Positions 19,433 to 61,092 of a stretch of 64,000 nt of DNA are shown here, piece by piece. The stretch covers positions 2,507-66,506 of the IMG/VR virus record IMGVR_UViG_3300017917_003093; one strand, given 5' to 3'. Below the pieces are notes generated by a model that did not search any database, was not told the DNA's origin, and worked only from the letters and a program-made list of their open reading frames with translations. Made by a program: the position numbers and the translations under genes. This stretch comes from a virus. How positions within the stretch are numbered: position 1 is the stretch's first letter; the number at the start of each line of letters is the position of its first letter.

Positions 19433-19867
19433 ATGAAAAAAATCTTTACCTTCTTATTTTTAATTCCTTGCTTGGCCGTGGCACAAAAAACACCACAAGG
19501 CGTGACCTATGACGCACAGATTGTTCGAGTGAATGATGGTGACACAGTTGTGATCAGTGCGCCGTTTCTTCCTAAACCGCTAAAGCCAGAACTGGCTGTG
19601 CGTGTGTTTGGTGTAGACACTCCAGAAAAAGGACATCGTGCCCAGTGTGACAGTGAAAACCAGCGTGGTTTGGCCGCCAGCGAATTCACCAAAAACGCTG
19701 TAAAGAGTACTAAGAAGCATCAAGTGATTCTCTACGGCTGGGACAAGTTTGGTGGACGTGTGTTGGGAGACATGATCCTGGACGGTGTGAGCCTGAGACA
19801 AGAACTTATCCGCAACGGCTTTGCCCGTGAATACTACGGCGACGCCAAGCAGAGCTGGTGTCAATAA
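19433..19867 (+). CDS. thermonuclease (SNase-like) with signal peptide
   Basis: RVNDGDT, VRVFGVDTPE, DKFGGRVLG, LIRNGFAREY; N-terminal MKK-hydrophobic-AVA. Confidence 0.9.
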   Translation: MKKIFTFLFLIPCLAVAQKTPQGVTYDAQIVRVNDGDTVVISAPFLPKPLKPELAVRVFGVDTPEKGHRAQCDSENQRGLAASEFTKNAVKSTKKHQVILYGWDKFGGRVLGDMILDGVSLRQELIRNGFAREYYGDAKQSWCQ

Positions 19868-19901
19868 TACATCTACCAAAAAACGTTGGTTAAATAGAAA
19901 C

Positions 19902-21053
19902 ATGGACGATTTCTATTGTGCAGCCCCTTGGCGGGGGTTGCATATCAATCCTCGTGGTGACGTCAAAACCTGTTGTGCAGGTAACCCCAACATGCTGGGC
20001 AATCTCAGCAAAAAAAACATTGAGCAAATACTCAACAGCGATCTCATGGTCGAAGTCCGACAAAGTTTATCTCAAGGTCGTCCACATGCCTATTGTTCCA
20101 ACTGTGTACAAGCCGAAAGATTTGGCGCAGATTCTGAACGACGTTGGCACAACAACGTAAATCCTGATTTTGATTACGCCACTGCCGGCAATAACTATCA
20201 TTATCCTGTGATAGTCGATGTACGCTGGAACACCACATGCAATCTAAGTTGCAACTACTGCGGCGAGTTTTGCAGTTCTAAATGGGCCAGCATCAAAAGC
20301 ATACCATTCAAGTCCGGGGCTAGACCTTACTATGATGCGGTGTGCGACTTTATCGGACAACATCAAGAACACATACATGAAGTGGCTTTAGTAGGCGGAG
20401 AACCATTGTTGTTGCCTGAAAACGAAAGATTGCTGGATGTGATTCCAAAAGATGCCATAGTGACATTGATAACCAATCTCAGTGTGGAGTTGGAACGCAA
20501 TAAAATTTTCCGTAAACTACAAAATCGCAACAAGGTAGGATGGTCATTGAGTTTTGATAACATAGGGGCCAAGTTAGAGTATGTGCGACATGGAGCTCAA
20601 TGGAATCAAATCAAACACAACCTTGAGATCATCAAAGATCTTTTTAAGAATCAAGGACAATGGGGAGGTATACATGCTGTCTATAATCTATACAACGCCA
20701 CTAACTTTTGTGAATTGCGAGAGTTTGCACAACACATGCAGATGACCGTGCTATGGCAAAATCTTTTCCAGCCCGAGTATCTTGATCCTTTTTTGTATGG
20801 AGCCGGTGTAGCAAAACCAGCTATGAACGAAATAGAAAAGTTCTATCGTATGGGCGTGGCTACCACTGCTGAGACTCAGTTTTTTCAAACTGCATTTTCT
20901 ACATATGAGCAAAGACTGGCAACGATTCCTGACAGCAAAATCATCAATGCTTTCCGACAACACATCCAAGATATAGAACAAAAATATCATCCAGATCAAC
21001 AAGGAGTATTTAGAAATCTTTGGCCCGAACTGGCCGATTCCTTGCTTAAATAG
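19902..21053 (+). CDS. radical SAM protein with N-terminal SPASM/twitch-like Cys domain
   Basis: CNLSCNYC, VGGEPLL; N-terminal CAAPW...GDVKTCC...CSNC. Confidence 0.9.
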   Translation: MDDFYCAAPWRGLHINPRGDVKTCCAGNPNMLGNLSKKNIEQILNSDLMVEVRQSLSQGRPHAYCSNCVQAERFGADSERRWHNNVNPDFDYATAGNNYHYPVIVDVRWNTTCNLSCNYCGEFCSSKWASIKSIPFKSGARPYYDAVCDFIGQHQEHIHEVALVGGEPLLLPENERLLDVIPKDAIVTLITNLSVELERNKIFRKLQNRNKVGWSLSFDNIGAKLEYVRHGAQWNQIKHNLEIIKDLFKNQGQWGGIHAVYNLYNATNFCELREFAQHMQMTVLWQNLFQPEYLDPFLYGAGVAKPAMNEIEKFYRMGVATTAETQFFQTAFSTYEQRLATIPDSKIINAFRQHIQDIEQKYHPDQQGVFRNLWPELADSLLK

Positions 21054-31840: not shown

Positions 31841-32605
31841 ATGAAAAAGATTGTTTTAGTAACCGGCGGCTTTGATCCTTTGCACAGTGGGCATATTGCC
31901 TATTTTAACGAAGCAAAAAAACTAGGAGACATCTTGGTAGTAGGAGTCAACAGCGATGCTTGGCTCACACGCAAGAAAGGCGCACCTTTCTTGCCACTGC
32001 TGGAACGCACTAACATCGTGCGCAATCTGCACATGGTCGATTATGTGATAGATTTTGATGATTCGGATGGCTCTGCTCGACGTGCCATTACCATGGTTCG
32101 TCAAAGTTATCCCCGAGACACCATTGTGTTTGCCAACGGAGGCGATCGCACCGACAACAACATTCCAGAGATGGATGTAGCCGATGACAATGTGAAGTTT
32201 GTGTTTGGTGTGGGAGGATTCAACAAAGCCAACTCCAGTTCATGGATTTTAGAAGAATGGAAAGCACCTTGTACCAAAAGACCTTGGGGATACTATCGAG
32301 TGTTACACGATGTGGCAGGCACCAAGGTCAAAGAACTCACAGTGGAGCCAGGTCAAAGACTTAGCATGCAACGTCATCAACAGCGGGCCGAGCATTGGTT
32401 TGTTTCGGAAGGCACAGCCACAGTCTACACCATTGACAGAAAAAGTGATGCTGAACTCTTGGGAGAGTTTGGTACACATCAGCACATACATATAGATCGT
32501 GGCGAATGGCATCAACTGTGTAATCTCACGGATGAGCCTTTGCGGGTGGTAGAAATACAGTACGGCGATAGTTGCGTGGAAAATGACATAGAAAGAAAAC
32601 CATGA
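31841..32605 (+). CDS. cytidylyltransferase-like (RfaE/TagD, HxGH) fused to mannose-6-phosphate isomerase-type cupin
   Basis: TGGFDPLHSGH, VGVNSD, FANGGDR; RPWG, LSMQRH..RAEHW, VEIQYG. Confidence 0.9.
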   Translation: MKKIVLVTGGFDPLHSGHIAYFNEAKKLGDILVVGVNSDAWLTRKKGAPFLPLLERTNIVRNLHMVDYVIDFDDSDGSARRAITMVRQSYPRDTIVFANGGDRTDNNIPEMDVADDNVKFVFGVGGFNKANSSSWILEEWKAPCTKRPWGYYRVLHDVAGTKVKELTVEPGQRLSMQRHQQRAEHWFVSEGTATVYTIDRKSDAELLGEFGTHQHIHIDRGEWHQLCNLTDEPLRVVEIQYGDSCVENDIERKP

Positions 32606-45586: not shown

Positions 45587-46536
45587 TGAGCACGATTATT
45601 CTAGGCAGCAATCACAACAATACCGCTGAGTATTACCAATACCTGGGTCTATCACCCAGTCGTTTGATAACCGCAACAGAACACGATTATGATCCTGGAC
45701 ATACCAGTGTACAGGACATTGATGACTTGACAGTGTTGGAAACTGTGTTGAGTCGCGCCGACCAGGTGTATTGGGCACATCCACACATCAGTGAGTTCAG
45801 TGACAGTGATTCCTACTATGATTTCATGGATTGGTTGAAGGACTACAATCTACGACATCACAATCTACAGAATCTAGAATCTGTGGTTTTTGATCCCTAT
45901 GGGTGGAATCAAAAATTTGAACCAACAGCCAACCATGCTGTGTTCTTAGGATGCAGTTTCACCGCAGGTGTAGGACTGCCAGACCCTCACACCCACTATG
46001 CCCACCAGGTGGCCCAACATTTTGGCAAACAACTGATGAACTTGTCTGTGCCCGGGGGCAACAACAGCCAGATTTTTGACAGATTCACACAGTTACGGTG
46101 CTGTGCCGGTCAACTGGTAGTGGTGCAGTTTACAGATCTGGCCCGCATAAACTATTGTGATCAGCACAAAAATCTATCATCGTTGTTGTTCTCTACTACC
46201 AAGATGGACAAAGATCTACATAGATCTCTGTTGGAAGTTTACCATAAAGACTTTTTGTTTTATGAGTTACTTGTTAAAATAAGAGCCATGGTGGCCCTGG
46301 CTCAAGTCCAGAGATTGAAATTGGTTTTTTGGTTGTCAGACTACAAGAATCCCACGCTGTATTCGCGATTGGATCAGACCTATTTTTATTCTATGAAACA
46401 GTTTGTTCCGGCCAGTTGGATCAAAAACTATCTAGTAGATTTTGCACAAGACGGACTCCATCCTGGAGTACAATCAAACAAAAACATCGCCACAGCATTG
46501 ATACGCTATATTGAAACTGTGTACAAGGACCAATGA
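45586..46536 (+). CDS. SGNH/GDSL-like hydrolase-fold protein
   Basis: FLGCSFTAG, NLSVPGGNN, DGLHPG. Confidence 0.65.
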   Translation: MSTIILGSNHNNTAEYYQYLGLSPSRLITATEHDYDPGHTSVQDIDDLTVLETVLSRADQVYWAHPHISEFSDSDSYYDFMDWLKDYNLRHHNLQNLESVVFDPYGWNQKFEPTANHAVFLGCSFTAGVGLPDPHTHYAHQVAQHFGKQLMNLSVPGGNNSQIFDRFTQLRCCAGQLVVVQFTDLARINYCDQHKNLSSLLFSTTKMDKDLHRSLLEVYHKDFLFYELLVKIRAMVALAQVQRLKLVFWLSDYKNPTLYSRLDQTYFYSMKQFVPASWIKNYLVDFAQDGLHPGVQSNKNIATALIRYIETVYKDQ

Positions 46537-47114
46537 TGCAGACCGATATTGATATTGATTTGGCAGATAGAGAACAAGTGTTGGCATTGATACATCATAC
46601 TCCGGCACGGCAACTACATCAAGGACAGGTACGTCGTCACAACAGCGGAGTGTACGTCACTGACATACCTCAAGATCCAGTGCATGGTTGTGCCAGCCTG
46701 GACTATGAAGAGGCTGAAGAACTTGGATATTTCAAAGTAGACCTTTTGAACATGTCGGTGTACCAACTGGTCAAAGATCCTGCACACTATCAAGCCATGT
46801 TGAATCGTGAACCCGATTGGGCTCGGCTGTGGACTGATCCGGCCTGGGCACAACAACTGGTGCATGTGGGCAACTACACAGATCTGCTGAAAAGTATGCG
46901 TCCAGATTCGATACCACGCATGGCTGCATTTATCAGTATCATACGTCCGGGCAAGGCACATCTACAGAATCAGTCATGGGATCGGGTGTTTGCTTCAGTT
47001 TGGGATGGAGACAACAGCCAAGGATTTGTATTCAAACACAGTCATGCCATCAGTTACGCGGCCTTGGTGGCACTGCACATGAACTTACTCAGTCAAGACG
47101 CCGAACCAAAGTAA
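46533..47114 (+). CDS. miniature family-C (DnaE-like) DNA polymerase catalytic core
   Basis: DIDID, HNSGVYV, GYFKVDLL, IIRPG and FKHSHAISY occur in DnaE order within 193 aa. Confidence 0.8.
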   Translation: MMQTDIDIDLADREQVLALIHHTPARQLHQGQVRRHNSGVYVTDIPQDPVHGCASLDYEEAEELGYFKVDLLNMSVYQLVKDPAHYQAMLNREPDWARLWTDPAWAQQLVHVGNYTDLLKSMRPDSIPRMAAFISIIRPGKAHLQNQSWDRVFASVWDGDNSQGFVFKHSHAISYAALVALHMNLLSQDAEPK

Positions 47115-48690: not shown

Positions 48691-48719
48691 TTGATCATAC
48701 TCAAAAATCATGTTACAAT
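48691..48719 (+). promoter_or_regulatory. sigma70-type promoter of primase, leaderless start
   Basis: TTGATC-N17-TACAAT with TG extension; ATG 5 nt downstream. Confidence 0.7.
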
Positions 48720-48724
48720 ACAGC

Positions 48725-49717
48725 ATGATTGATGTGACTTCCTATCTGCCCAGCAAACACAAAAGCACCACTTCGGGCTGGATCAGTTTCAATGCTGTGT
48801 GTTGTGTACACAACGGCGAAAGCCAGGATCGTCGACAGCGCGGTGGTATCAAGCCAGCAGAAGATGGATCTTGGAGTTATCATTGTTTCAACTGTGGATT
48901 CACTGCCAGCTTTATCATGGGTCGTAATCTTACCTTTAAAGCTCGCAGACTGTTGGAATGGATGAATGTGCCTGCAGAAGAAATCGAACGCATCAATCTT
49001 GAAAGTCTTCGCCACAAGAACGTGCAGGGCATACTGCAAGATCGTCAGCAACTGATGCAAAAGTTGGGCGCCATAGAGTTTGAGGATCGTGATCTGCCCA
49101 GCCGATGCCAGCCCATAGATCCTACCAACGGACTAGGTTATGCCGGCAACGACAACGCTATGCAATATCTGCGTGAACGTTGTGTGCCTATGGATTATCC
49201 TTATCTGTATCGCCCCATGCCACGTCCTGGTATCATAATACCGTTCACACACGACGGGCAGGTAGTGGGTCATACCATGCGGTTCCTGGATGATCGTACT
49301 CCCCGATACATACATGACACACAACCGGGTTATGTGTTCGGCACAGATCTGCAACATGCTGGCTGGCAACATGCGATCGTGGTCGAGGGAGTGTTTGACG
49401 CACTCAGTATCTCGGGCCTGGCAGTGTTGCATGCTGAAATCAACGACACACAGGCACGCTTGATACGCAGCCTGGGACGTGAAATAACTGTGGTTCCAGA
49501 TCAGGATGAGGCTGGCATGAAGTTAGTGGATCGTGCTGTGGAACTGGGCTGGGCAGTGAGCATGCCAGACTGGCCCGCAGATGTCAAAGATGTCAATGAT
49601 GCTGTGATTCGTTGGGGTAGATTGGCCACTTTGATAACTATCATGCAGGCTCGAGAAACCAGTAAAATCAAAATAGAATTGAGGAAGAAACAACTTGTTA
49701 AAAGACTACGGACTTGA
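48725..49717 (+). CDS. DNA primase (Zn finger plus TOPRIM)
   Basis: YHCFNCG, VVEGVFDAL, VPDQDEAG, KDVND; upstream of the helicase. Confidence 0.9.
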   Translation: MIDVTSYLPSKHKSTTSGWISFNAVCCVHNGESQDRRQRGGIKPAEDGSWSYHCFNCGFTASFIMGRNLTFKARRLLEWMNVPAEEIERINLESLRHKNVQGILQDRQQLMQKLGAIEFEDRDLPSRCQPIDPTNGLGYAGNDNAMQYLRERCVPMDYPYLYRPMPRPGIIIPFTHDGQVVGHTMRFLDDRTPRYIHDTQPGYVFGTDLQHAGWQHAIVVEGVFDALSISGLAVLHAEINDTQARLIRSLGREITVVPDQDEAGMKLVDRAVELGWAVSMPDWPADVKDVNDAVIRWGRLATLITIMQARETSKIKIELRKKQLVKRLRT

Positions 49718-51104
49718 TGTCCAAAAACTATTCTTAGAAATGATGTTGCAAGACGCAGAGAGCTATGTGCGTGTGCAGAACATCTACAATCCAGAAAACT
49801 TTGATCGTAGCCTGAGACCTGCGGCCCAGTTTATTGCTGAACACAGCGACGAACACAAGACCTTGCCCACAGCTGAACAGATTCGGGCAGCCACAGGTGT
49901 TGCCTTGAATCATATCCCAGACTTGAACGAAGGACACTTTGAATGGTTTATGGATGAGTTTGAAGGTTTTACTCGCAGACAGGAACTGGAACGTGCTATC
50001 CTTAAATCCGCAGACTTGTTGGAAAAGGGAGAGTATGATCCTGTGGAGAAACTGATCAAGGATGCTGTACAGATATCATTGACCAAGGACATGGGCACAG
50101 ACTACTGGGCCGATCCAAGATTCAGGATCAACAAATATTTTAACTCAGGCGGACAAGTATCAACTGGTTGGCCACAGATGGACAAGATTTTATACGGTGG
50201 TTTCAGCCGTGGCGAACTGAATATTTTCGCAGGCGGGTCAGGATCTGGTAAGAGTCTTGTGATGATGAACATAGCCTTGTCGTGGTTGCAGGCCGGACTT
50301 TCAGGCGTGTATGTGAGTTTGGAACTTAGTGAAGAGCTTTGTGCCCTAAGAACTGATGCTATGTTATCAGGTATGAGCACCAAAGAGATCCGCAAGGACA
50401 TAGATCAGACTGAACTCAAGGTCAAACTTGTGAGCAAAAAAGCCGGACAATATCGTATCAAAGCACTGCCAGCACAAAGCAACATCAACGACATTAGAAG
50501 CTACATCAAAGAAGTACAGGTACAGACAGGACTCCGAGTAGACTTTGTCATGGTAGACTATCTAGACTTGCTGATGCCGGTATCGGCCAAGGTCAGTCCC
50601 AATGATCTATTCGTCAAAGACAAATATGTTTCAGAAGAACTGCGTAACTTGAGCAAAGAGCTCAATGTGCTCATGGTCACGGCTTCGCAGTTAAATCGTA
50701 GTGCTGTAGAAGAAATCGAGTTTGACCACAGCCATATCTCGGGTGGTATTTCAAAAATCAACACAGCAGACAACGTGTTTGGTATCTTTACATCGCGTGC
50801 CATGCGTGAGCGTGGCAAGTATCAGATACAGTGTATGAAATCACGTAGTAGCACAGGTGTAGGTATGAAGATTGACTTGGACTACAACATCGAAACCATG
50901 CGCATAACTGATCCGGGCGAAGACGCTGCGCCAGTCAACGGTTTCCGCAAGCCCGACATCTTGTCCAACATCAGAACACAAAGCCGCTTGAACTCGGAAC
51001 CCGAGCCAGATGCTCCGGCAGAAGAAATGGAAACTGGCAAAATCACAGCCGACGTACAGAGCGCCAAACTCAAGCAGTTGTTGGGCAAAATAAAAACAAC
51101 GTGA
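49695..51104 (+). CDS. gp41: replicative DnaB-family helicase
   Basis: GGSGSGKS, SLELSE, VDYLDL, TASQLNR, MKSRSS; TTG start. Confidence 0.9.
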   Translation: MLKDYGLDVQKLFLEMMLQDAESYVRVQNIYNPENFDRSLRPAAQFIAEHSDEHKTLPTAEQIRAATGVALNHIPDLNEGHFEWFMDEFEGFTRRQELERAILKSADLLEKGEYDPVEKLIKDAVQISLTKDMGTDYWADPRFRINKYFNSGGQVSTGWPQMDKILYGGFSRGELNIFAGGSGSGKSLVMMNIALSWLQAGLSGVYVSLELSEELCALRTDAMLSGMSTKEIRKDIDQTELKVKLVSKKAGQYRIKALPAQSNINDIRSYIKEVQVQTGLRVDFVMVDYLDLLMPVSAKVSPNDLFVKDKYVSEELRNLSKELNVLMVTASQLNRSAVEEIEFDHSHISGGISKINTADNVFGIFTSRAMRERGKYQIQCMKSRSSTGVGMKIDLDYNIETMRITDPGEDAAPVNGFRKPDILSNIRTQSRLNSEPEPDAPAEEMETGKITADVQSAKLKQLLGKIKTT

Positions 51105-52111
51105 TCAGTTATCAAGAAATAAGAGACGTCCACCTAGAAATATCCAGTCTCTGCAACGCCAGTTGTCCATGGTGCCCCAGGACTTTTTGGGGCTATCCCT
51201 ACAACGGCGGCTATCCTGAAACCAATCTTTCTTTGGTGCAAGCTCAGCAAATCTTCCAACCCGAGTTTTTGCAACAGTTGACCAGCATACGCATCAACGG
51301 CAACTTTGGCGACATCGTGATGAATCCTCAAGGCCCCGACATCGTTGATTATTTTTTCTCACAAAACCCAGATCTGTATGTGAGCATCAGCACCAATGGC
51401 GGCGCCAGAGACAAGAAGTTTTGGACACAGTTGGCCCAGACTCCGGTCACGGTGTTGTTTTGTTTGGATGGCCTGGAAGATACACATCATCTTTATCGCC
51501 AAAACACAGTGTGGAAAACCGTGATACGCAACGCAGAAATCTTTATTGAAGCAGGCGGTCGAGCGATTTGGAAAATGATCAAGTTTGATCACAACCAGCA
51601 TCAGATTCTGGAGTGCGCCCAACTGAGTCGGCGCATGGGATTTGCGGATTTTCAGCTGATTGACGAAGGGCGCAACACTGCTCCAGTGTTTGATCAGCAC
51701 GGACAGTTGACCCATGTGTTGGGCAACTATACCGGAGAAAAAGAATTTGAAGTTTTGATATATCGCAAAAAAAATGACGAAATTTTGCTGGAAGATATTG
51801 TGGCAGATCGCCGCCCTGCTCAAAGAATAGAGTGCGAAACACAAAAACTAAGATCCATTTATATTTCGGCCACTGGTGATGTGAGCCCGTGTTGCTACAC
51901 TGGATTTTATCCTCGTAGCTATGGGCACGGACAATACCATCAAGCTGCCAATGCCCAACTGGTTCCTTTGATGGTAAAAAACAATGCGCTGGAATATTCT
52001 TTGCAAGACTGCATACAATGGTTCAAATCCGTGGAAAAATCCTGGAAAATATCGGAATATCAACAGGGCCGTCTAGTAATATGTGATGACAACTGTGGCC
52101 AAAAACAATAA
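51101..52111 (+). CDS. radical SAM protein with C-terminal SPASM/twitch-like Cys motif
   Basis: CNASCPWC, GNFGD, STNG, YISATGDVSPCC, C..NC. Confidence 0.9.
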   Translation: MISYQEIRDVHLEISSLCNASCPWCPRTFWGYPYNGGYPETNLSLVQAQQIFQPEFLQQLTSIRINGNFGDIVMNPQGPDIVDYFFSQNPDLYVSISTNGGARDKKFWTQLAQTPVTVLFCLDGLEDTHHLYRQNTVWKTVIRNAEIFIEAGGRAIWKMIKFDHNQHQILECAQLSRRMGFADFQLIDEGRNTAPVFDQHGQLTHVLGNYTGEKEFEVLIYRKKNDEILLEDIVADRRPAQRIECETQKLRSIYISATGDVSPCCYTGFYPRSYGHGQYHQAANAQLVPLMVKNNALEYSLQDCIQWFKSVEKSWKISEYQQGRLVICDDNCGQKQ

Positions 52112-52135: not shown

Positions 52136-52384
52136 ATGCAAAAGAAAACACGCAGTCTACTAGAAGAATTAGACGAGATGTATGTACAACGTGATTCACG
52201 TTTGGTCATTGAAAATCGCGCTTCTAATATCATTGCCAGTGCTATACGTCTGCTAGAACAGATTGATGCTACCTATCCGGCTGAACAGGCAGAAAATCTC
52301 AAACGCAAGTTGTTGAATGCCATCAACCAACGTGACCCCGGTAAATTCACCCGAACCGTGAGACGCACAGATGCAAATTCATGA
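52136..52384 (+). CDS. hypothetical late protein
   Basis: TAAATA 52109-52114. Confidence 0.7.
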   Translation: MQKKTRSLLEELDEMYVQRDSRLVIENRASNIIASAIRLLEQIDATYPAEQAENLKRKLLNAINQRDPGKFTRTVRRTDANS

Positions 52385-53444
52385 CATCACTAAACCCCAG
52401 ATAAATGAAGGGTTAGGAGATTTTATCAAGTCGGCCCAGCGACAAAGACAGATAAACAAAATAGCCGACACATCATACAAGGCCTGGAAACAGTATGAAA
52501 AAACCTTGTTACAAGCCAATCCCGATGCACGAGCAGATGGCATGTATGAGCAAGCATTATTGGCCTTTGTGACTAAAAATCTCTTGGGCGGACAATATCT
52601 ACCCAACGTTATAAACAAACAACAAATACAAGCTCTGGTCAAACAACTCAGTAGCGGGGGAAAAATAAGTGAAGCCAAACCGTTTGCTGTAACTGGAGCT
52701 GCCAATCCTGGGGCACCCACAGCTGCCGAGCGTGCAAAACTGCAACAAATGATAGCGGCCAAAACACAGGCCCAACAACCGGTCGCCGCACCTGTTGCTA
52801 AAAAAACTGTCGCACCTGCCTCTAAAACTTCTGCGCCTATTACCTCCAAAGCATTTGGCTCCATGGTAAAAGACCTTTCCACATCTCAACCAGTTGGTCC
52901 AAAAACCAGTAGCACAGGAGGAACTACCACAGTTACTCCAACAGGAACAGTGCATAAAGCAAGTGCAACCAATCCAAATATTGCTAAAGAACCAGCTCAA
53001 CCTGTTGCCACTCCAACTGCACCGGCCGCACCTGCTCAACCCGTTGCTACACCTGCTCAACCCGCTGCTACACCTGCTCAACCCGCTGCTACACCTGTTG
53101 CACAAAAACCAGTTACCCCCGCAAGTTTGTCTCCGCAACAGGAAAAAGATCTTTGGTTAAAACTGACTCAACAGGCAGCAGTGGCAACCACCACAGCTCC
53201 CGGTACCGGAGTCAAACAGACTCCAGTTGCGGATACCGAAAAACAAAATGCATCTCCGGAATCCTCTGGCGACGCCAGATCATATGTGCAGTTACTCAAC
53301 GGAGCTGTTCCAGCAGAGACCATCCGAGGTCTGGCAGAGTTTGGAAATCAGTCCACTAAAAATCTCGGAACTCTAAAAGTCAACAGCACCGGAAATCCAG
53401 TGGCTGATGCACTGTTGTTGATGGCCGGCTTCAAGGGTATCTGA
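52371..53444 (+). CDS. putative internal/virion protein with long Pro/Ala/Thr-rich region
   Basis: MQIHDITKPQINE N-terminus; low-complexity centre. Confidence 0.65.
   Translation: MQIHDITKPQINEGLGDFIKSAQRQRQINKIADTSYKAWKQYEKTLLQANPDARADGMYEQALLAFVTKNLLGGQYLPNVINKQQIQALVKQLSSGGKISEAKPFAVTGAANPGAPTAAERAKLQQMIAAKTQAQQPVAAPVAKKTVAPASKTSAPITSKAFGSMVKDLSTSQPVGPKTSSTGGTTTVTPTGTVHKASATNPNIAKEPAQPVATPTAPAAPAQPVATPAQPAATPAQPAATPVAQKPVTPASLSPQQEKDLWLKLTQQAAVATTTAPGTGVKQTPVADTEKQNASPESSGDARSYVQLLNGAVPAETIRGLAEFGNQSTKNLGTLKVNSTGNPVADALLLMAGFKGI
53031..53093 (+). repeat. 21-bp coding tandem repeat x3 (PAQP[V/A]AT)
   Basis: CCTGCTCAACCCG(T/C)TGCTACA repeated, with degenerate flanking copies. Confidence 0.9.
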
Positions 53445-55309
53445 TGAACATATTTGAAGGCGGCAATGTATTCAAAGACGACGAAGGTCGTAGTCTCACA
53501 CAGCGTATCAATCAGACTGATGTGAAATCTACATTGGCCTGGTTGGAAGAACTGGTGCCAGGACTGGATCTACAAAACAACACCCTGGGCAGCACCGGCA
53601 TCAAAGCCACATCGGGCGACCTAGACATAGCAGTGGACACCGGCCAAGTCACCAAAGAGCAAATGGTGGCACAACTCACACGTTGGGCACAGAGTCATGG
53701 TTTCCGCCCAGAAGAATGGATACGCAAGTCGGGCACCGCTGTGCATTTCAAAACTCCTATCAATGGGCGACCTGATCTGGGATTTGTGCAGACTGATTTT
53801 ATGTTTTTACAAAATGTGCCTTGGTCAAAGTTTGTGTTGGGTGCCATGCCTGCAGATTCAAAGTACAAAGGTCGTGAACGCAATATATTGATCAACTCGA
53901 TAGCCAAGAGTATGGGTTACAAACTCAACCAACTGGCCGGCATCGCAGATCGAGCCACCAACGAGATCATCACAGACGATCCGGACAAAGTAGCCAAACT
54001 GTTGCTGAATCGTACAGCCACACGCCAAGACCTAGCATCTGTAGAAACCATACTACAGGCTCTCAGCACTGATCCCAATCGCGAAGCCAAGCTGGCCGAC
54101 TTCCGCGAACACATGCAACGCGAAGGTCTGCCTTTTTTAGAAAGCACAGAAGTGCAACAACCCATGTCTGATGTAAACTTCCTGGCTCGTCTAAGAGACC
54201 GCATAGTCAATCAAGGCATGGTGCCCATCATGGAGGCCGGCGGAGCCCGCATTGAGCATCTAGAAGATTTGGTGTTTGAGCGCGGCACACGTGGTGTCAA
54301 AGAAGCTCTTGACATCATTCAGCAGGCCGCAGAAGATACTCGCAAGACTACCACGGTGAAATGGGATGGCAAGCCCGCTATCATCTGGGGTCGTAAACCC
54401 ACCGGAGAGTTTGTGCTCACAGACAAATCAGGATTTGGAGCCAAGGGCTACGATGGTTTGGCCACCAGCCCGGAACAAATAGCTCGTATCATGAGCATGC
54501 GCGGTGGAGAAAGATCAGGACTGATCGCTATCTATCAAAAACTGTTTCCCATGTTGCGTGCTGCCACGCCAGAAAACTTCCAAGGCTACATCCAAGGCGA
54601 CTTGTTGTATACCGATACTCCTCCCGAAGTATCTGGTGCCTATGTGTTCAAGCCCAACTTTGTGGAATATCGTATTCCTGCGGCTAGCAAGCTGGGCGAG
54701 AGTATCGGCTCCAGTGAAGTAGGCATAGCCGCACACACTAGATATCTCAGCCAGGATTCAGCAGCTGAACCTTTGCGCAACGTAAATCTAGAACCCGTGC
54801 CTGGATTATTGATAGTGGAACCCACTGTCAATGACATCAAGAATGTGGTGCCCAACAAAAAACTAATACAACAGTTGAAACAAGTTGTAAATCAAAATGC
54901 CGCGGCCATAGATGGTTTGTTTAATCCTGCCGATCTCCGAGCCGCACAACTTAGCGATCTGCCGCAGTTATGCAAACGCTATATCAACAGTCGTATCATG
55001 AGCAACTATGACAATCTGTTGCCGGGCTTTGGCGAGTGGTTGAAGGCCAATGTCACGCCCAGGAAGTTTGCCAATCTGGTAGAATATCTACAAAGTCCTA
55101 GATCAAACATGGACGGAATAACTGCTGCTTTTACAGCGTTCTTATTGTTACACGAAATCAAGACCGATATGCTGGAACAACTAGATCGTCAACAGCCAGG
55201 ACAAGAAGGCTGGGTCTTGGCCACTGATGCTGGTCGTGCCAAGTTGGTAAATCGCTTTGGATTCTCGGCCGGCAATCGTATCCTAAACAACCCAAATCTA
55301 GCTACCTAA
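53444..55309 (+). CDS. fusion of Pol-beta-type nucleotidyltransferase and ATP-dependent ligase-like (KxDG) domain
   Basis: LGS...GDLDI...QTD; TVKWDG, IQGDLLY, EGWVL, RAKLV. Confidence 0.7.
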   Translation: MNIFEGGNVFKDDEGRSLTQRINQTDVKSTLAWLEELVPGLDLQNNTLGSTGIKATSGDLDIAVDTGQVTKEQMVAQLTRWAQSHGFRPEEWIRKSGTAVHFKTPINGRPDLGFVQTDFMFLQNVPWSKFVLGAMPADSKYKGRERNILINSIAKSMGYKLNQLAGIADRATNEIITDDPDKVAKLLLNRTATRQDLASVETILQALSTDPNREAKLADFREHMQREGLPFLESTEVQQPMSDVNFLARLRDRIVNQGMVPIMEAGGARIEHLEDLVFERGTRGVKEALDIIQQAAEDTRKTTTVKWDGKPAIIWGRKPTGEFVLTDKSGFGAKGYDGLATSPEQIARIMSMRGGERSGLIAIYQKLFPMLRAATPENFQGYIQGDLLYTDTPPEVSGAYVFKPNFVEYRIPAASKLGESIGSSEVGIAAHTRYLSQDSAAEPLRNVNLEPVPGLLIVEPTVNDIKNVVPNKKLIQQLKQVVNQNAAAIDGLFNPADLRAAQLSDLPQLCKRYINSRIMSNYDNLLPGFGEWLKANVTPRKFANLVEYLQSPRSNMDGITAAFTAFLLLHEIKTDMLEQLDRQQPGQEGWVLATDAGRAKLVNRFGFSAGNRILNNPNLAT

Positions 55310-56826: not shown

Positions 56827-57329
56827 TCAACGAACAACAGATGGAACGCATGTTCCAAAAAGAAATCAACTATCTCATGCCCAATGTAATCTGGCAGAAT
56901 GATGATGGCATCTATGAAGTTTTTGGACGGTATCGTATACAACCCAAATATCCAGGATTCCGTGTGTTTTGTGGTGCAACAGAAGTAGGAACATTCAGTT
57001 CTACTCGTACTGCATTGAGCTGGTGCATAGCCGACAAAAACTGTGCCTACAACACCGCCCGAGAAATACTATCAGTAGACTCCAAGCTGTCGGCCTTGAC
57101 AGCAGATATTGCCACTCGTGCATCCGTGGGTGATCGCAGCAAAGACCTCGATCGACGAGAAATCATTTCAACCAAACTAGAAACCAAGATTATACATAAA
57201 AAAGCCTTAGAAAATCAACTGGCCAAATGTGTGGATTGGGCTAAATATTGTCAACAACGAGGATTCGATAATGAAACTGCAAGAACTGGCCGTGGCCAAC
57301 CCAACAAAACAAGCCGCCAAGGTATTTGA
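56823..57329 (+). CDS. hypothetical protein
   Basis: ATGA overlap start at 56823. Confidence 0.65.
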   Translation: MINEQQMERMFQKEINYLMPNVIWQNDDGIYEVFGRYRIQPKYPGFRVFCGATEVGTFSSTRTALSWCIADKNCAYNTAREILSVDSKLSALTADIATRASVGDRSKDLDRREIISTKLETKIIHKKALENQLAKCVDWAKYCQQRGFDNETARTGRGQPNKTSRQGI

Positions 57330-58083
57330 AAGCTATTTTGGCGACAGCGTGAATTTTGAACAGTTACCGGCTGATCAAGCCCGTAAAATGCTCAATCGCG
57401 TGCGTTCACTCATCGCTGAACATCGCAGAACACCCAAGTTCCATACCAGCGAACAGAATCCTGCTTATTTGAAACTGGTAGTCATGGAACAGGCCCTGGC
57501 TGCCACTGCTACACAAGCTGATCCTCAACAGACTGCTGCTGCCATGGCTCTGCAACGCCAGCAAAAACAACGCCAGCTCGATGACGAAATCAAAGTCAAA
57601 CAAAAAGAATTAGCTGATCTGCAAAAACAAAAAGGCATGTTAGAAACACGTCGTAGCTTGAAACAACGCCTCAAAGAAGCTAGCGAAGTTCAACAGGCTC
57701 AAGTTGTACTGGCCAGCCAGGACATGGTTGATCAAGTGCAAAAGATGAGTGAACAGATTTCAGCCATGCAGTTCAAAGACTTGCCAGCCTTGGTAGATCA
57801 GATCAAGAACGAAGTTGGCACAGATCAAGCCATGCAGTTCAACACAGACGCCACAGCCGCACTGGCAGGCTTGTTACAAAATCTACAAGGCGCCAAAACA
57901 CAACTGGAAGCCGCACTTGGTGTGGTCACAGGACAGGCTCCTGTGATTCCGGGTGAAGAAATGGTTGCTCCTGCTGTGGGTGAAGTTCCTGCAGAACTGC
58001 CAGAGCCCGGTGAAGAAATCGACATCACGGACACCGAGATCGAAGAACCCACCGATGTGGGCCTAGGACGTGAACGCAGATAA
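57271..58083 (+). CDS. coiled-coil protein, putative prohead core/scaffold
   Basis: GAGGA SD; MKLQELA N-terminus; acidic tail ending LGRERR. Confidence 0.6.
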   Translation: MKLQELAVANPTKQAAKVFESYFGDSVNFEQLPADQARKMLNRVRSLIAEHRRTPKFHTSEQNPAYLKLVVMEQALAATATQADPQQTAAAMALQRQQKQRQLDDEIKVKQKELADLQKQKGMLETRRSLKQRLKEASEVQQAQVVLASQDMVDQVQKMSEQISAMQFKDLPALVDQIKNEVGTDQAMQFNTDATAALAGLLQNLQGAKTQLEAALGVVTGQAPVIPGEEMVAPAVGEVPAELPEPGEEIDITDTEIEEPTDVGLGRERR

Positions 58084-58492: not shown

Positions 58493-58948
58493 ATGGCTTA
58501 TTCTGAACAAGTAATCGATCATTATGAAAATCCACGCAACGTGGGCTCATTTGAAAAAGGCGACGATAGCGTAGGTACCGGCATGGTGGGTGCGCCTGCT
58601 TGCGGTGACGTAATGAAACTACAAATAAAGGTTGACCATGATACAGGTATTATTACAGATGCAAAATTTAAAACGTATGGCTGCGGATCGGCTATCGCAA
58701 GCTCAAGCCTTGTCACAGAGTGGGTCAAAGGAAAAACACTTGACGAAGCAGGAGAAATTAAAAACTCCGCCATCGCAGAAGAACTAGCATTGCCGCCAGT
58801 TAAGATTCACTGCTCCATCCTGGCCGAAGATGCCATCAAGGCGGCCATAGAAGACTATCGCAAAAAGCATCCTGTGGATGAACTTGAAGAGTATCGTCGT
58901 CAGGCACAGGCTCTGTGGAATGATTCTTGCACTTCGCCACGAGCATGA
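58493..58948 (+). CDS. iscU: Fe-S cluster scaffold IscU
   Basis: YSEQVIDHYENPRNVG, GAPACGD, KTYGCGSAIASSS, LPPVKIHCS. Confidence 0.97.
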   Translation: MAYSEQVIDHYENPRNVGSFEKGDDSVGTGMVGAPACGDVMKLQIKVDHDTGIITDAKFKTYGCGSAIASSSLVTEWVKGKTLDEAGEIKNSAIAEELALPPVKIHCSILAEDAIKAAIEDYRKKHPVDELEEYRRQAQALWNDSCTSPRA

Positions 58949-59274
58949 TCAATATCACAGACACAGCCGCTACTAAGATAAAAGAAAACATCACCCGACG
59001 CGGTCGCGGGCTGGGCATCAAGATTGGTGTAAAAACTACTGGTTGTTCGGGATTGGCCTATGTGCTTGAATACGTTGACCAAGAACAAGGAAGAGAACAC
59101 TGCATGGCTCACTATGACATCAATGGTGTGCGAGTCTATGTAGATCCCAAGCATGGCCCTTATCTACAAGGCATGACCATGGATTGGATACGGCAAGGTC
59201 TCAATGAAGGCTTTGATTTTATCAACCCTAATGAACGCGACCGCTGTGGTTGCGGAGAAAGTTTCCGAGTTTAA
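58945..59274 (+). CDS. iscA: Fe-S cluster carrier IscA
   Basis: TTGCSGLAY, F.NPN...CGCGESF. Confidence 0.95.
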   Translation: MINITDTAATKIKENITRRGRGLGIKIGVKTTGCSGLAYVLEYVDQEQGREHCMAHYDINGVRVYVDPKHGPYLQGMTMDWIRQGLNEGFDFINPNERDRCGCGESFRV

Positions 59275-59275
59275 T

Positions 59276-59986
59276 TTGTATAATCCTCGATTTGACTATC
59301 GGCCCTTGAGCAGAGTCACAGAAGACGGTCGTAGACTCTACGACACTCCCGGAGGCAAACTGCCCAGTGTCACTACAATCTTAGACCGCACTAAGCCTGA
59401 AGAAAAGAAACAAGCTCTCAATGAATGGCGCAACCGTGTAGGGCATGCTCAAGCTCAAGCCATCACCACAGAAGCTGCCAACCGTGGCACCAGGATGCAT
59501 ACATATCTTGAGCATTATGTAAAAACAGGGCAGATCCGAGAAGCCGGAACCAACCCGTATGCATGGGCCAGTCATGCCATGGCACAAACAGTGATCGATC
59601 AAGGATTGAAAAATGTCGATGAATTCTGGGGAGTTGAAATACCCTTGTACTATCCGAAGCTTTATGCAGGAACTAGCGACGGTGCTGGTATACATCTTGG
59701 TAGCGAAAGCATCCTAGATTACAAACAAACCAACAAGCCCAAGCGCCGAGAATGGATCGAGGACTACTTCCTTCAACTGGTAGCCTATGCTCTGGCACAC
59801 AATGAAGTCTACGGAACAAAAATACGCAAGGGCGTGGTCTTGATGTGTGTCAAACCCGAAACTGATGACCAGTTCAATATTATCAAGCCACCCGAGTACC
59901 AAGAGTTTGTGTTGGAAGAACGAGATTTTGATTATTGGGAACAACAGTGGTGGAAAAGGCTGGAACTATATTACCTGCAGGCATGA
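59276..59986 (+). CDS. PD-(D/E)xK exonuclease
   Basis: LPSVTTIL, RGTRMH, YAGTSD, DYKQT, Q..AY; probable TTG start 59276. Confidence 0.85.
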   Translation: MYNPRFDYRPLSRVTEDGRRLYDTPGGKLPSVTTILDRTKPEEKKQALNEWRNRVGHAQAQAITTEAANRGTRMHTYLEHYVKTGQIREAGTNPYAWASHAMAQTVIDQGLKNVDEFWGVEIPLYYPKLYAGTSDGAGIHLGSESILDYKQTNKPKRREWIEDYFLQLVAYALAHNEVYGTKIRKGVVLMCVKPETDDQFNIIKPPEYQEFVLEERDFDYWEQQWWKRLELYYLQA

Positions 59987-61092
59987 CGCATAGTTATTGC
60001 GCAGCTCCTTTCAACAGCGTCAGAGTCGAAGCCACCAGCCACAATCAATCTCGCTATCGACCCTGTTGCATGTATCAAGGACAACAGACCTACAACAACA
60101 TCCAGCAATATCTACACAGCCCTGAACTACAACAACTCCAACAGCATTTTTTAACCCAGGATTCGTTGCCTCCGGGATGTCAGGCCTGTCAGAATCAAGA
60201 ACAGCAAAATCAGATCAGCTGGCGCCAGCATTTCAACAACAAGTTTGGCGATAAAAAACAACTCTCACAACTGGAAATGTTTCCAGGTAATGTGTGTAAT
60301 CTACGATGTTTCATGTGCAACGACAACTACAGCACCGCGTTGGGAGCCGAACGCACCAAGTTGAATTTCATTGACAGTTACCAAGAGATCGACAATGTAG
60401 ATGCTTGCATGGATTCCATAGCCAATCTATCTCAACTGACCGACATCAGTTTTATTGGTGGAGAGTTTTTCCTGACCAAAAAAAACCTCGACATACTGGA
60501 TCTTGTGATTGAAAAACAACTGGGAGTCCGAGTAGTCACTAATGGTACCATACTGTTGCCCGATCACATGTCTCGTTTGAAACAGATCTCAAGACTAGAA
60601 CTACAGATCAGTATAGATGGCACGCATGATAACTATGAGTTCATGCGCTACCCGGCGCAATGGGATCAAGTGGAAGAAAACATCCAACGCATCAAACATG
60701 AACTGACCCACGCCCAGGTAAATTTTAACTTTGTAGTCCAGCCATTGAACGTGCAGTACATGATATCCACCATGGACTATGCCAACCGATTGATGATACC
60801 CATAAGACTGACAAATCTCGTGGATCCTGCTTGGTTGACCTGGACCATCTTGGATCAACAGGAAAAAGCCGTGTTGATTGATCTGTTGCAATCGCAAGTG
60901 AGTCAGCATAGACTAACCACCCGACAGCAACAAACAGTTGAGGATTATCGGCAGACCATAGCACATACAGCCATGTCAGCACAAGATCGCTTGATTTTTC
61001 AGCAAAAAATGAAGGCCACACTAAAACACCGCGGTATTCCACCGCAAAAAGTCCAGCAACATCTGGGCTGTATCAGCAGTCTGTTGGTTTGA
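59983..61092 (+). CDS. radical SAM protein with N-terminal SPASM/twitch-like Cys domain
   Basis: CAAPF...PCC...CQAC; CNLRCFMC; IGGEF; TNGT; SIDG; ATGA overlap. Confidence 0.9.
   Translation: MTHSYCAAPFNSVRVEATSHNQSRYRPCCMYQGQQTYNNIQQYLHSPELQQLQQHFLTQDSLPPGCQACQNQEQQNQISWRQHFNNKFGDKKQLSQLEMFPGNVCNLRCFMCNDNYSTALGAERTKLNFIDSYQEIDNVDACMDSIANLSQLTDISFIGGEFFLTKKNLDILDLVIEKQLGVRVVTNGTILLPDHMSRLKQISRLELQISIDGTHDNYEFMRYPAQWDQVEENIQRIKHELTHAQVNFNFVVQPLNVQYMISTMDYANRLMIPIRLTNLVDPAWLTWTILDQQEKAVLIDLLQSQVSQHRLTTRQQQTVEDYRQTIAHTAMSAQDRLIFQQKMKATLKHRGIPPQKVQQHLGCISSLLV

Follow-up and report, generated by a model that had tools for sequence, protein, structure and literature searches.

A gene of a giant T4-like phage, open from position 53444 to 55309 on the plus strand of the 64-kb stretch of DNA analysed here (the window, part of the 66.5-kb IMG/VR virus record IMGVR_UViG_3300017917_003093), encodes a predicted fusion of a polymerase-like and a ligase-like domain. 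Fold models indicate that its N-terminal domain is a minimal palm and thumb of the kind found in family X polymerases (PolX), i.e. more than a generic Pol-beta nucleotidyltransferase (NTase), and identify its C-terminal domain, Pfam family DUF6267, as a previously unrecognised member of the lysine-nucleotidyltransferase (ligase/capping) fold that lacks an OB domain. We tentatively read the protein as a two-enzyme device that would extend and then seal nicks, gaps or breaks in the phage DNA, a reading with a real chance of being right, if somewhat short of an even one, and we favour DNA over RNA as its substrate. The completeness of the source record is estimated at 19%; the window carries the T4-type genes for sheath, tube, terminase, a gp32-like single-stranded DNA-binding protein (SSB), UvsX and UvsY, and the genomes of close relatives reach 317-337 kb, one of them having terminal repeats and being rated complete.

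The two domains and their fusion

The ATG of the gene overlaps the stop codon of the upstream open reading frame (ORF) by one base (TGATG), with AAGGG 8-12 nt upstream. All motif strings named by a first-pass annotation of the sequence were found in place, namely IFEGG from residue 3, GS from 49, DLD from 59, TDF from 117, FLES from 231 and IMEAG from 262, followed in the C-terminal half by KWDG from 306, QGDLL from 384, EGWV from 588 and KLV from 600. The features of the gene are as follows.

53444..55309, plus strand: whole ORF, an open frame of 621 aa plus stop
53444..54127, plus strand: N domain, residues 1-228, family-X-polymerase-like palm and thumb, then an extra helix (213-226)
53450..53464, plus strand: IFE-GG, residues 3-7, N-domain start motif [LIVMF]-x-E-G-G-N-[VI]-F
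53588..53626, plus strand: G49-S50 ... S57-G58-D59-L-D61, putative nucleotide-binding loop and two metal-binding Asp, strand 59-65
53792..53800, plus strand: T117-D118-F119, putative third catalytic Asp, strand 114-122
53837..54058, plus strand: thumb-like subdomain, residues ~132-205, with helix 143-156 (R146 and S152 conserved), three short strands and helices
54128..54247, plus strand: inter-domain linker, residues 229-268, holding FLE-S, helix FLARLRDRIVNQGM and IME-AG
54134-54145, plus strand: FLE-S, residues 231-234, linker site 2
54227-54241, plus strand: IME-AG, residues 262-266, linker site 3
54248..55306, plus strand: C domain, residues 269-621, Pfam DUF6267, predicted ligase/capping nucleotidyltransferase fold without OB domain
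54257..54268, plus strand: H272-L-E274-D275, invariant H-x-E-D at the start of the long helix preceding motif I
54359..54370, plus strand: K306-W-D308-G309, motif I, K306 being the predicted AMP-accepting Lys
54593..54607, plus strand: Q384-G-D386-L-L, motif-III-like, D386 invariant
54857..55192, plus strand: helical insert of ~110 aa, residues 472-583, separating motif IV from the nucleotidyltransferase strands
55205..55255, plus strand: E588-G589-W-V (motif IV) and K600-L-V602-N-R604 (motif-V-like), with E588, G589, K600 and V602 invariant

A word-indexed search gave 4108 proteins at E ≤ 1e-3 among 8000 candidates scored, and the 120 matches listed from it are 618-627 aa long, 82-90% identical and all metagenomic; an exhaustive search of 50%-identity representatives gave 1633 at E ≤ 1e-3 and 258 at E ≤ 1e-30. 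The phage collection contains no megablast match to the 8 kb surrounding the gene, and sequence searches of the PDB with the whole protein and with profiles of each domain returned chance rows only (best E 0.045-0.8). Residue conservation was followed in 19 full-length relatives that are 32-61% identical to the query. All 19 keep G49, G52, S57 and D61 in the N-terminal part and K306, D308, G309, D386, E588, G589, K600, V602 and R604 in the C-terminal part, while D59, D65 and D118 are present in at least 90% of them and D118 in 20/20 sequences of set A2; judged from these alignments, the conservation of the catalytic motifs exceeds chance. The fusion ORF of a 192-kb relative stops after 360 aa (L060 8001-9083), possibly because the copy is split or frameshifted, or else through an error of assembly.

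The AlphaFold2 model of the N domain, built from 39 sequences, has a predicted local distance difference test score (pLDDT) of 93.9 and gave 121 Foldseek matches to the PDB at E ≤ 1e-3, with human Pol lambda, Pol beta and Thermus PolX at the top (~190-205 columns). Folds were also compared by VIA-align with 48,161 chains, giving 50 rows per domain, and here all of the ten top rows for the N domain are family X polymerases. Residues 11-201 superpose on residues 139-335 of Pol beta (4rpx; Z 10.3, root mean square deviation 3.3, 164 residues), and PolX of African swine fever virus (ASFV; 5hr9) aligns over 158 of 176 residues with a Z of 8.9; terminal uridylyl and poly(A) transferases, CD-NTases and CCA enzymes appear from rank 11 on, at Z ≤ 7.2 and over ~90 residues. 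Among the viral structures of BFVD the domain's own family comes first, including a 277-aa protein of phage Atu_ph07, and giant-virus PolX is the nearest named group after it; rows recognisable as RlaP occur neither here nor in the VIA-align list. Conservation and fold together reveal the Pol-beta-type palm, the G-S loop and the three carboxylates of family X, and at the level of the fold a PolX thumb follows directly upon the palm. Because this thumb is present in the model, the domain appears to be more than the Pol-beta-type NTase that the first-pass annotation had proposed; the superfamily stands, and AlphaFold2, Foldseek and VIA-align folds narrow it to family-X-like. None of the Pfam, PHROG and NCBIfam models matches the N domain.

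The C domain matches PF19782 (DUF6267) with an E of 1.2e-36 and 127.3 bits against a cut-off of 27, residues 270-611 falling on positions 4-371 of the 376 in the model, and it also matches phrog_455. K306, D308 and G309 are invariant in 19/19, 43/43 and 6/6 aligned relatives, the last set being homologues from cultured phages, and the same holds across all three sets for the whole catalytic series of Lys, Asp, Gly, Glu-Gly and Lys; residue 604 is Arg in five of the six cultured-phage homologues and Lys in the other. GD386LL, F402/P404/Y409, E588-G589 and K600 are conserved in the order of motifs III, IIIa, IV and V, to which they may correspond, though ~110 residues are inserted before motif IV and motif V is atypical. 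In the model of the domain (43 sequences, pLDDT 92.3) this insert and helix 273-297 make a helical bundle, and rows of helical bundles enter the VIA-align list from rank 28. Every row above these (ranks 1-27 of 50; Z 7.7-5.0, 143-207 residues) is an RNA ligase, a DNA ligase or a capping enzyme; they include Naegleria RNA ligase (Z 7.7, 185 residues), the fungal tRNA ligase Trl1 and REL1 (both 7.0), T4 Rnl1 (6.6), DNA ligases (~6) and vaccinia capping enzyme (5.0). The best Foldseek match has an E of 0.015, with top rows that are nearly all RNA or DNA ligases. We base the ligase-fold call on this uniform list of matches together with the invariant K-x-D-G, G-D-L-L, E-G and K-x-V-x-R/K. The strings that the first pass assigned to motifs I, III, IV and V of the covalent nucleotidyltransferases are present and agree with the fold models. 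A feature search of the Atlas gives a weak lead to the Rnl2 family PF09414 (score 0.77); the PF09414 and Rnl1 (PF09511) models themselves do not match at E ≤ 1. The word DUF6267 was not found in the literature searched, nor was a paper on 'Syn9 gp183', and the available text of a paper on polyvalent proteins (PMC5512222) is silent on the family.

Domain composition was mapped on the best 150 representatives, some of which are fragments on short contigs, using hidden Markov models made from our own alignments. The two domains occur as N-C in 56, C-N in eight and N-C-N in one, with 53 proteins holding the C domain only and 32 the N domain only. Both orders of fusion exist and the two domains therefore probably act together. 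The proposal of a two-enzyme fusion, joining a member of the Pol-beta superfamily to one of the ligase superfamily, is thus borne out by folds, invariant residues and recurrent fusion. Further partners were seen in relatives: out of 44 larger relatives that were scanned, six (P0141, P0144, P0145, P0149, P0246 and P0257) join a CTP_transf_like (HIGH-motif) domain either to DUF6267 or to the complete fusion, the best NCBIfam rows of that domain being NMN/NaMN adenylyltransferases, all below cut-off, and a deoxyribonucleotidase-type HAD domain (NT5C) is present in some (P0155, P0236). The phrog_455 profile covers both DUF6267 and the cytidylyltransferase part.

Genomic setting and ligase inventories

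The first-pass annotation had placed the gene among putative head proteins. Two neighbours do belong to PHROG families labelled 'virion structural protein', the 82-aa ORF (phrog_11854) and ORF 57229-58083 (phrog_14154), but several other genes around the fusion belong to replication or Fe-S assembly, and the placement is only partly right. Upstream lie a piece of a DNA polymerase, primase, DnaB-type helicase, a radical-SAM-like gene, the 82-aa ORF and a 357-aa ORF; downstream are seven small or uncharacterised ORFs, NifU, an IscA-like gene and an exonuclease. BLAST of 17 among 75 related loci gave the same gene order in all rows listed. The upstream neighbours in question are:

48710-49717 and 49695-51104, plus strand: primase and DnaB-type helicase, 33% and 47% identical to Atu_ph07 gp71 and gp70
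52136..52384, plus strand: 82-aa neighbour, homologue of Atu_ph07 gp68 (BLASTP E 1.6e-6), both falling in phrog_11854
52371..53444, plus strand: 357-aa upstream ORF, translationally coupled to the fusion with a 1-nt overlap

The 357-aa ORF belongs to no Pfam, PHROGs or NCBIfam family and is the least conserved neighbour, matched at no fewer than three loci (34-46% identity over 103-130 aa) with both flanks conserved; it is unrelated to the cytidylyltransferase of P-TIM40, which also has 357 aa. In Atu_ph07 the order is primase gp71, helicase gp70, gp69, gp68, gp67, gp66 and gp65. There gp66 is ligase-like, with KLDG at residue 9 and a match to Pfam RNA_ligase at an E of 0.002, below cut-off, and gp65, directly downstream of it, is a homologue of the N domain (hhalign 99.4%, E 2e-21). 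Between DUF6267 and the Atu_ph07 ligase-like protein, hhalign aligned the KxDG stretch alone (E 0.11). The stand-alone DUF6267 genes of P-TIM40, Syn9, S-SZBM1 and Melnitz lie downstream of replication genes of the uvsX and gp41 types; in the first three of these MazG is also upstream and a 'cytidylyltransferase' gene stands directly after DUF6267. Two such cytidylyltransferase-like genes follow DUF6267 in S-SZBM1 (L087 5284-7773) and Syn9 (L004 5902-8641). PTIM40_181, XaC1_100 and XaC1_101 were tested as split homologues of the N domain and are not.

DUF6267 matches in 323 phage records, nearly all from marine cyanomyoviruses. Closer to the source phage, PF01068 DNA ligase is present in three of the four related records (G001, G002 and G004; the fourth is 53% complete), and PF01653 ligase in none of the related records examined. 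These relatives thus carry a canonical gp30-type DNA ligase as well, and we therefore take the fusion to be an accessory rather than the replicative ligase. The idea that DUF6267 replaces the canonical ligase in this clade was rejected, PF01068 being found in G001, G002, G004 and XaC1 and PF01653 in Atu_ph07. In none of the DUF6267 carriers of the Kyanoviridae type that were searched (P-TIM40, Syn9 and Melnitz; 0/3) was either ligase family found, and the available text of PMC2984593 reports cyanomyoviruses without a homologue of DNA ligase (g30) or RNase H (rnh), leaving distant homologues open. Since the gene stands in the replication region and three of three genomes are without either ligase family, DUF6267 becomes a concrete candidate for the ligase of cyanomyoviruses.

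Other parts of the window were noted in passing. Three radical-SAM-like ORFs together with NifU and IscA-like genes occupy 19821-21053, 51101-52111, 59935-61092 and 58493-59274, and relatives differ in the radical-SAM gene between helicase and 82-aa ORF. A 193-aa ORF at 46533-47114 has a DNA-polymerase family (phrog_11778) as its only match; this short ORF is conserved and may be a split polymerase subunit. Methyltransferases and a glycosyltransferase between 28928 and 39900 resemble a sugar-nucleotide or glycan-modification module, and ORF 31841-32605 is heptose-1-phosphate adenylyltransferase/mannose-6-phosphate-isomerase-like. The first-pass annotation presumed the gene to be late; the T4 late-promoter word is not enriched in the 64 kb (a single copy, 1.36 expected), and scans for sigma-70 promoters and terminators were uninformative (19 against 17.8 and 20 against 12.6 expected). 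Sigma-70-like -35/-10 boxes stand upstream of 5085, 40138, 43623 and 58493, and ATAAATA-like boxes upstream of 10068, 55379 and 61146 (the tube gene, the ORF after the fusion and a fibre-like gene); the two kinds of box may represent two promoter classes.

Proposed repair of phage DNA and its rivals

We infer the activities, their order, the substrate, the cofactor and the place and time of action as follows. D59, D61 and D118 would hold two metals and the loop G49-S50...S57-G58 the triphosphate, so that the N domain could add one or a few nucleotides to the 3'-OH at a gap or damaged end; K306 would then take up AMP and pass it to the 5'-phosphate, and attack by the 3'-OH would close the break. 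The likeliest substrate would be the phage's own DNA where it is nicked, broken or interrupted by short gaps. Since the ligase part is RNA-ligase-like and has no OB domain, the patch could conceivably consist of ribonucleotides, as with bacterial LigD. Our lean towards DNA has several grounds: the closest structures to the N domain are DNA polymerases, which makes DNA gap filling at least as well indicated as tRNA repair; the gene follows primase and helicase genes here, in Atu_ph07 and, for the C domain only, in four records of the cyanophage type; the relatives G001 (complete) and G002 (89% complete) are without AAA_33 kinase, Rnl1, separate Rnl2 and RlaP (0/2 each); and there are the NT5C-type HAD fusions as well as the precedent of PgVPolX (PMC5537341). 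Of the first-pass suggestion of a kit for nucleic-acid end repair or nucleotide-signal interference, the repair half is the best reading of the folds, invariant residues and repeated fusion; the interference half found no support, the sole hint being the link between DUF6267 and the NMN-adenylyltransferase-like domain.

Several observations weigh against the repair of phage DNA by such an enzyme. The N domain lacks the 8-kDa (lyase) domain and the fingers (helix-hairpin-helix) domain, only five residues preceding the conserved GG; in cellular PolX these two domains bind gapped DNA. The Pfam palm (PF14792) and thumb (PF14791) models do not match the query protein at E ≤ 1 and each match just one of 20 N-domain relatives (E 0.08 and 0.22), and for the protein as a whole no PolX or ligase-family sequence model matches, Pfam at E ≤ 1 giving DUF6267 alone. 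The fold scores of the C domain are middling (best Z 7.7, no Foldseek match at E ≤ 1e-3), and RNA ligases rank highest among its matches, although differences of up to 1 Z unit count as ties. The usual motif V is K-x-K; that of the C domain lacks the second Lys and has its second basic residue at +4 rather than +2. DNA ligases have an OB domain and a motif VI that are missing here, where only 21 residues follow K600, and hhalign against four gp30-type ligases from related phages found no kinship (probability 0.25%). AP (apurinic/apyrimidinic) endonuclease of either family was found in none of the five genomes searched, which argues against a phage-encoded excision-repair pathway. Finally, RlaP, a Pol-beta NTase associated with RNA ligase, is described as adding 1-2 nucleotides to damaged RNA (bioRxiv 10.64898/2025.12.29.696909).

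This last activity underlies the alternative of tRNA or RNA repair, in which an RlaP-like N domain would restore one or two lost 3' nucleotides and DUF6267 would rejoin the halves left by host anticodon nucleases. We consider it possible, though rather unlikely. Its appeal lies in the RNA-ligase architecture of the C domain, with no OB domain and with helical accessory parts, in the RNA ligases at the head of its match list, in the weak RNA_ligase match of the Atu_ph07 partner gp66, in a published association between Pol-beta NTases and RNA ligases of jumbo phages (PMC7824862) and in the HAD phosphatase fusions of relatives; the lack of RlaP, Rnl1 and separate Rnl2 in G001 and G002 would leave a niche for the fusion to fill. 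Against this, the RlaP model PF10127 matches neither the query (E ≤ 1) nor any of 20 relatives (E ≤ 10), and the modelled thumb is of the alpha/beta PolX type rather than all-helical like the C domain described for RlaP (bioRxiv 10.64898/2025.12.29.696909). Breaks made by anticodon nucleases need a 5'-kinase before an ATP-type ligase can act, and none is recognisable in G001 and G002 (0/2), whereas XaC1 and Atu_ph07, which carry DUF6267 or an N-domain homologue, already have full sets of Rnl1, Rnl2, RlaP and kinase; moreover, DUF6267 is near-universal in the replication region of cyanomyoviruses. Less probable still is that DUF6267 is an adenylyltransferase other than a polynucleotide ligase, working with a HIGH-motif enzyme in NAD+ or nucleotide metabolism or signalling beside an N domain that acts as a non-templated transferase. 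The CTP_transf_like fusions, the 'cytidylyltransferase' that adjoins DUF6267 in three cyanophages and shares the phrog_455 profile with it, and the atypical motif V would suit such a role. Yet the full residue set of ligases is invariant, the best structural matches are polynucleotide ligases and not small-molecule enzymes, the partner has a PolX-like fold, which binds primer ends, and the fusion in the window has no HIGH-motif domain itself.

A further possibility, doubtful in our view, concerns the time and place of action: the protein would be packaged in the head, cut after IFE, FLE and IME by a T4-type prohead protease, injected, and active before phage transcription. In T4, head proteins bear short N-terminal targeting leaders and are cleaved behind L/I-x-E. 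Triplets of the form [LIF]-x-E number 11 in the protein, where 2000 shuffles give 7.5 ± 2.4, and a layout with one site among residues 1-10 and two more among residues 225-270 arose in 19 of the 2000; this placement is unusual, yet the models put sites 2 and 3 within a predicted flexible linker, confidence being low at residues 231-245 and 258-266. Aligned [LIVMF]-x-E is kept in 15/19, 4/19 and 10/19 relatives at sites 1, 2 and 3, and the claim of proteolytic processing at all three domain borders finds no backing in these counts. Site 1 is the more constant, [LIVMF]-x-E standing immediately before GG in 68 of the 71 N-domain starts among the 150 representatives (the other three begin M-GG or lack the motif) after variable leaders of 1-25 residues, five residues long in 14 cases; that of the present protein also has five, a point against the packaging model. 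It is, however, equally constant at internal starts (23/23), C-N proteins included, and therefore fits a structural element of the N domain, a pattern that still leaves room for a conserved cut at these starts. The linker also holds a conserved amphipathic helix, FLARLRDRIVNQGM (residues 246-259, 54179-54220), found too at the C end of some N-only proteins and possibly a docking element.

Virion tables of phages with homologues split the claim of delivery in the particle between the two halves of the protein. In the Atu_ph07 table of 131 proteins, whose gp numbering we fixed by the match of computed to tabulated masses, the polymerase-like gp65 is listed with 10 unique peptides and 36.8% coverage, as are its neighbours gp67, gp68 (5 peptides, 63.8% coverage; the homologue of the 82-aa ORF of the window) and gp69, while the ligase-like gp66 does not appear. 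Similarly, the available text and tables on S-SZBM1 contain no occurrence of the DUF6267 homologue SSZBM1_141, which is not among its 30 virion proteins, though the adjoining cytidylyltransferase (_140), _139 and _136 are, both cytidylyltransferase-like products at low abundance. Also to be set against packaging, Atu_ph07 gp65 starts M-GG without a leader, and the Atu_ph07 preparation was purified with polyethylene glycol (PEG) and includes RecA-like, SSB and ribonucleotide reductase proteins at 1-3 peptides. These tables lend indirect support to virion association of the polymerase-like part only, through one homologue. Atu_ph07 gp59-gp63 (L003 7576-11753) are paralogues (BLASTP E 1e-4 to 1e-56) that share an N-terminal leader ending in L-x-E and were all found in virions, and some leaders of metagenomic N domains look similar.

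Relation to known systems

If the models hold, DUF6267, with its 1633 representative clusters at E ≤ 1e-3, would gain a predicted biochemical identity as a lysine-AMP ligase-type enzyme, and it belongs to the core genes of marine cyanophages, in which no ligase is known. To our knowledge, PolX-type polymerases are rare in tailed phages. Given the mixed findings on virions, one may ask whether phage DNA is accompanied by repair enzymes on its way into the host. A bolder proposal, which we think improbable, is that DUF6267, as a new OB-less branch of the ligase superfamily, is the missing DNA ligase of T4-like cyanomyoviruses and that in jumbo phages its fusion to a minimal PolX forms a virion-associated break-repair module, patching and sealing nicks, gaps or ends of the incoming genome before phage expression.

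Among the members of DUF6267/phrog_455, Syn9 gp183, P-TIM40_182 and S-SZBM1_141 have the same invariant residues as the C domain; the cyanophage genes stand alone or adjoin, or are fused to, a cytidylyltransferase-like gene, whereas the partner in the phage fusion is the PolX-like domain. RlaP with Rnl1, Rnl2 or RtcB, and T4 NrdC.11, RnlA, RnlB and Pnkp, likewise couple a transferase of the Pol-beta superfamily to an OB-less ligase in large phages; the fusion differs in its PolX-like rather than helical thumb, in the lack of a PF10127 match and in having no kinase or phosphatase partner in the complete relative. ASFV PolX (174 aa) is also a minimal palm and thumb without 8-kDa and fingers domains, but there polymerase and ligase are separate proteins, the ligase has an OB domain, and sequence identity is 15%.

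The nearest parallels in design are two. Bacterial LigD also fuses end extension to sealing for break repair, its ribonucleotide patches being an analogy only; its polymerase, however, has the archaeo-eukaryotic primase fold instead of that of PolX, and its ligase has an OB domain. PgVPolX of Phaeocystis globosa virus is a PolX-ligase fusion for which gap filling and sealing in base excision repair have been shown biochemically (PMC5537341), and, like the protein described here, it joins an N-terminal family-X-type polymerase to a C-terminal ligase in one polypeptide. That protein comes from a giant virus, its ligase part is related to NAD+-dependent ligases and its PolX part has lyase activity; the phage fusion is from a bacteriophage, lacks the 8-kDa and fingers domains and carries instead the OB-less, sequence-unrelated DUF6267. 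The polymerase-ligase fusion, independent in both orders, may thus be a self-contained repair module, analogous to LigD and PgVPolX and assembled from different parts.

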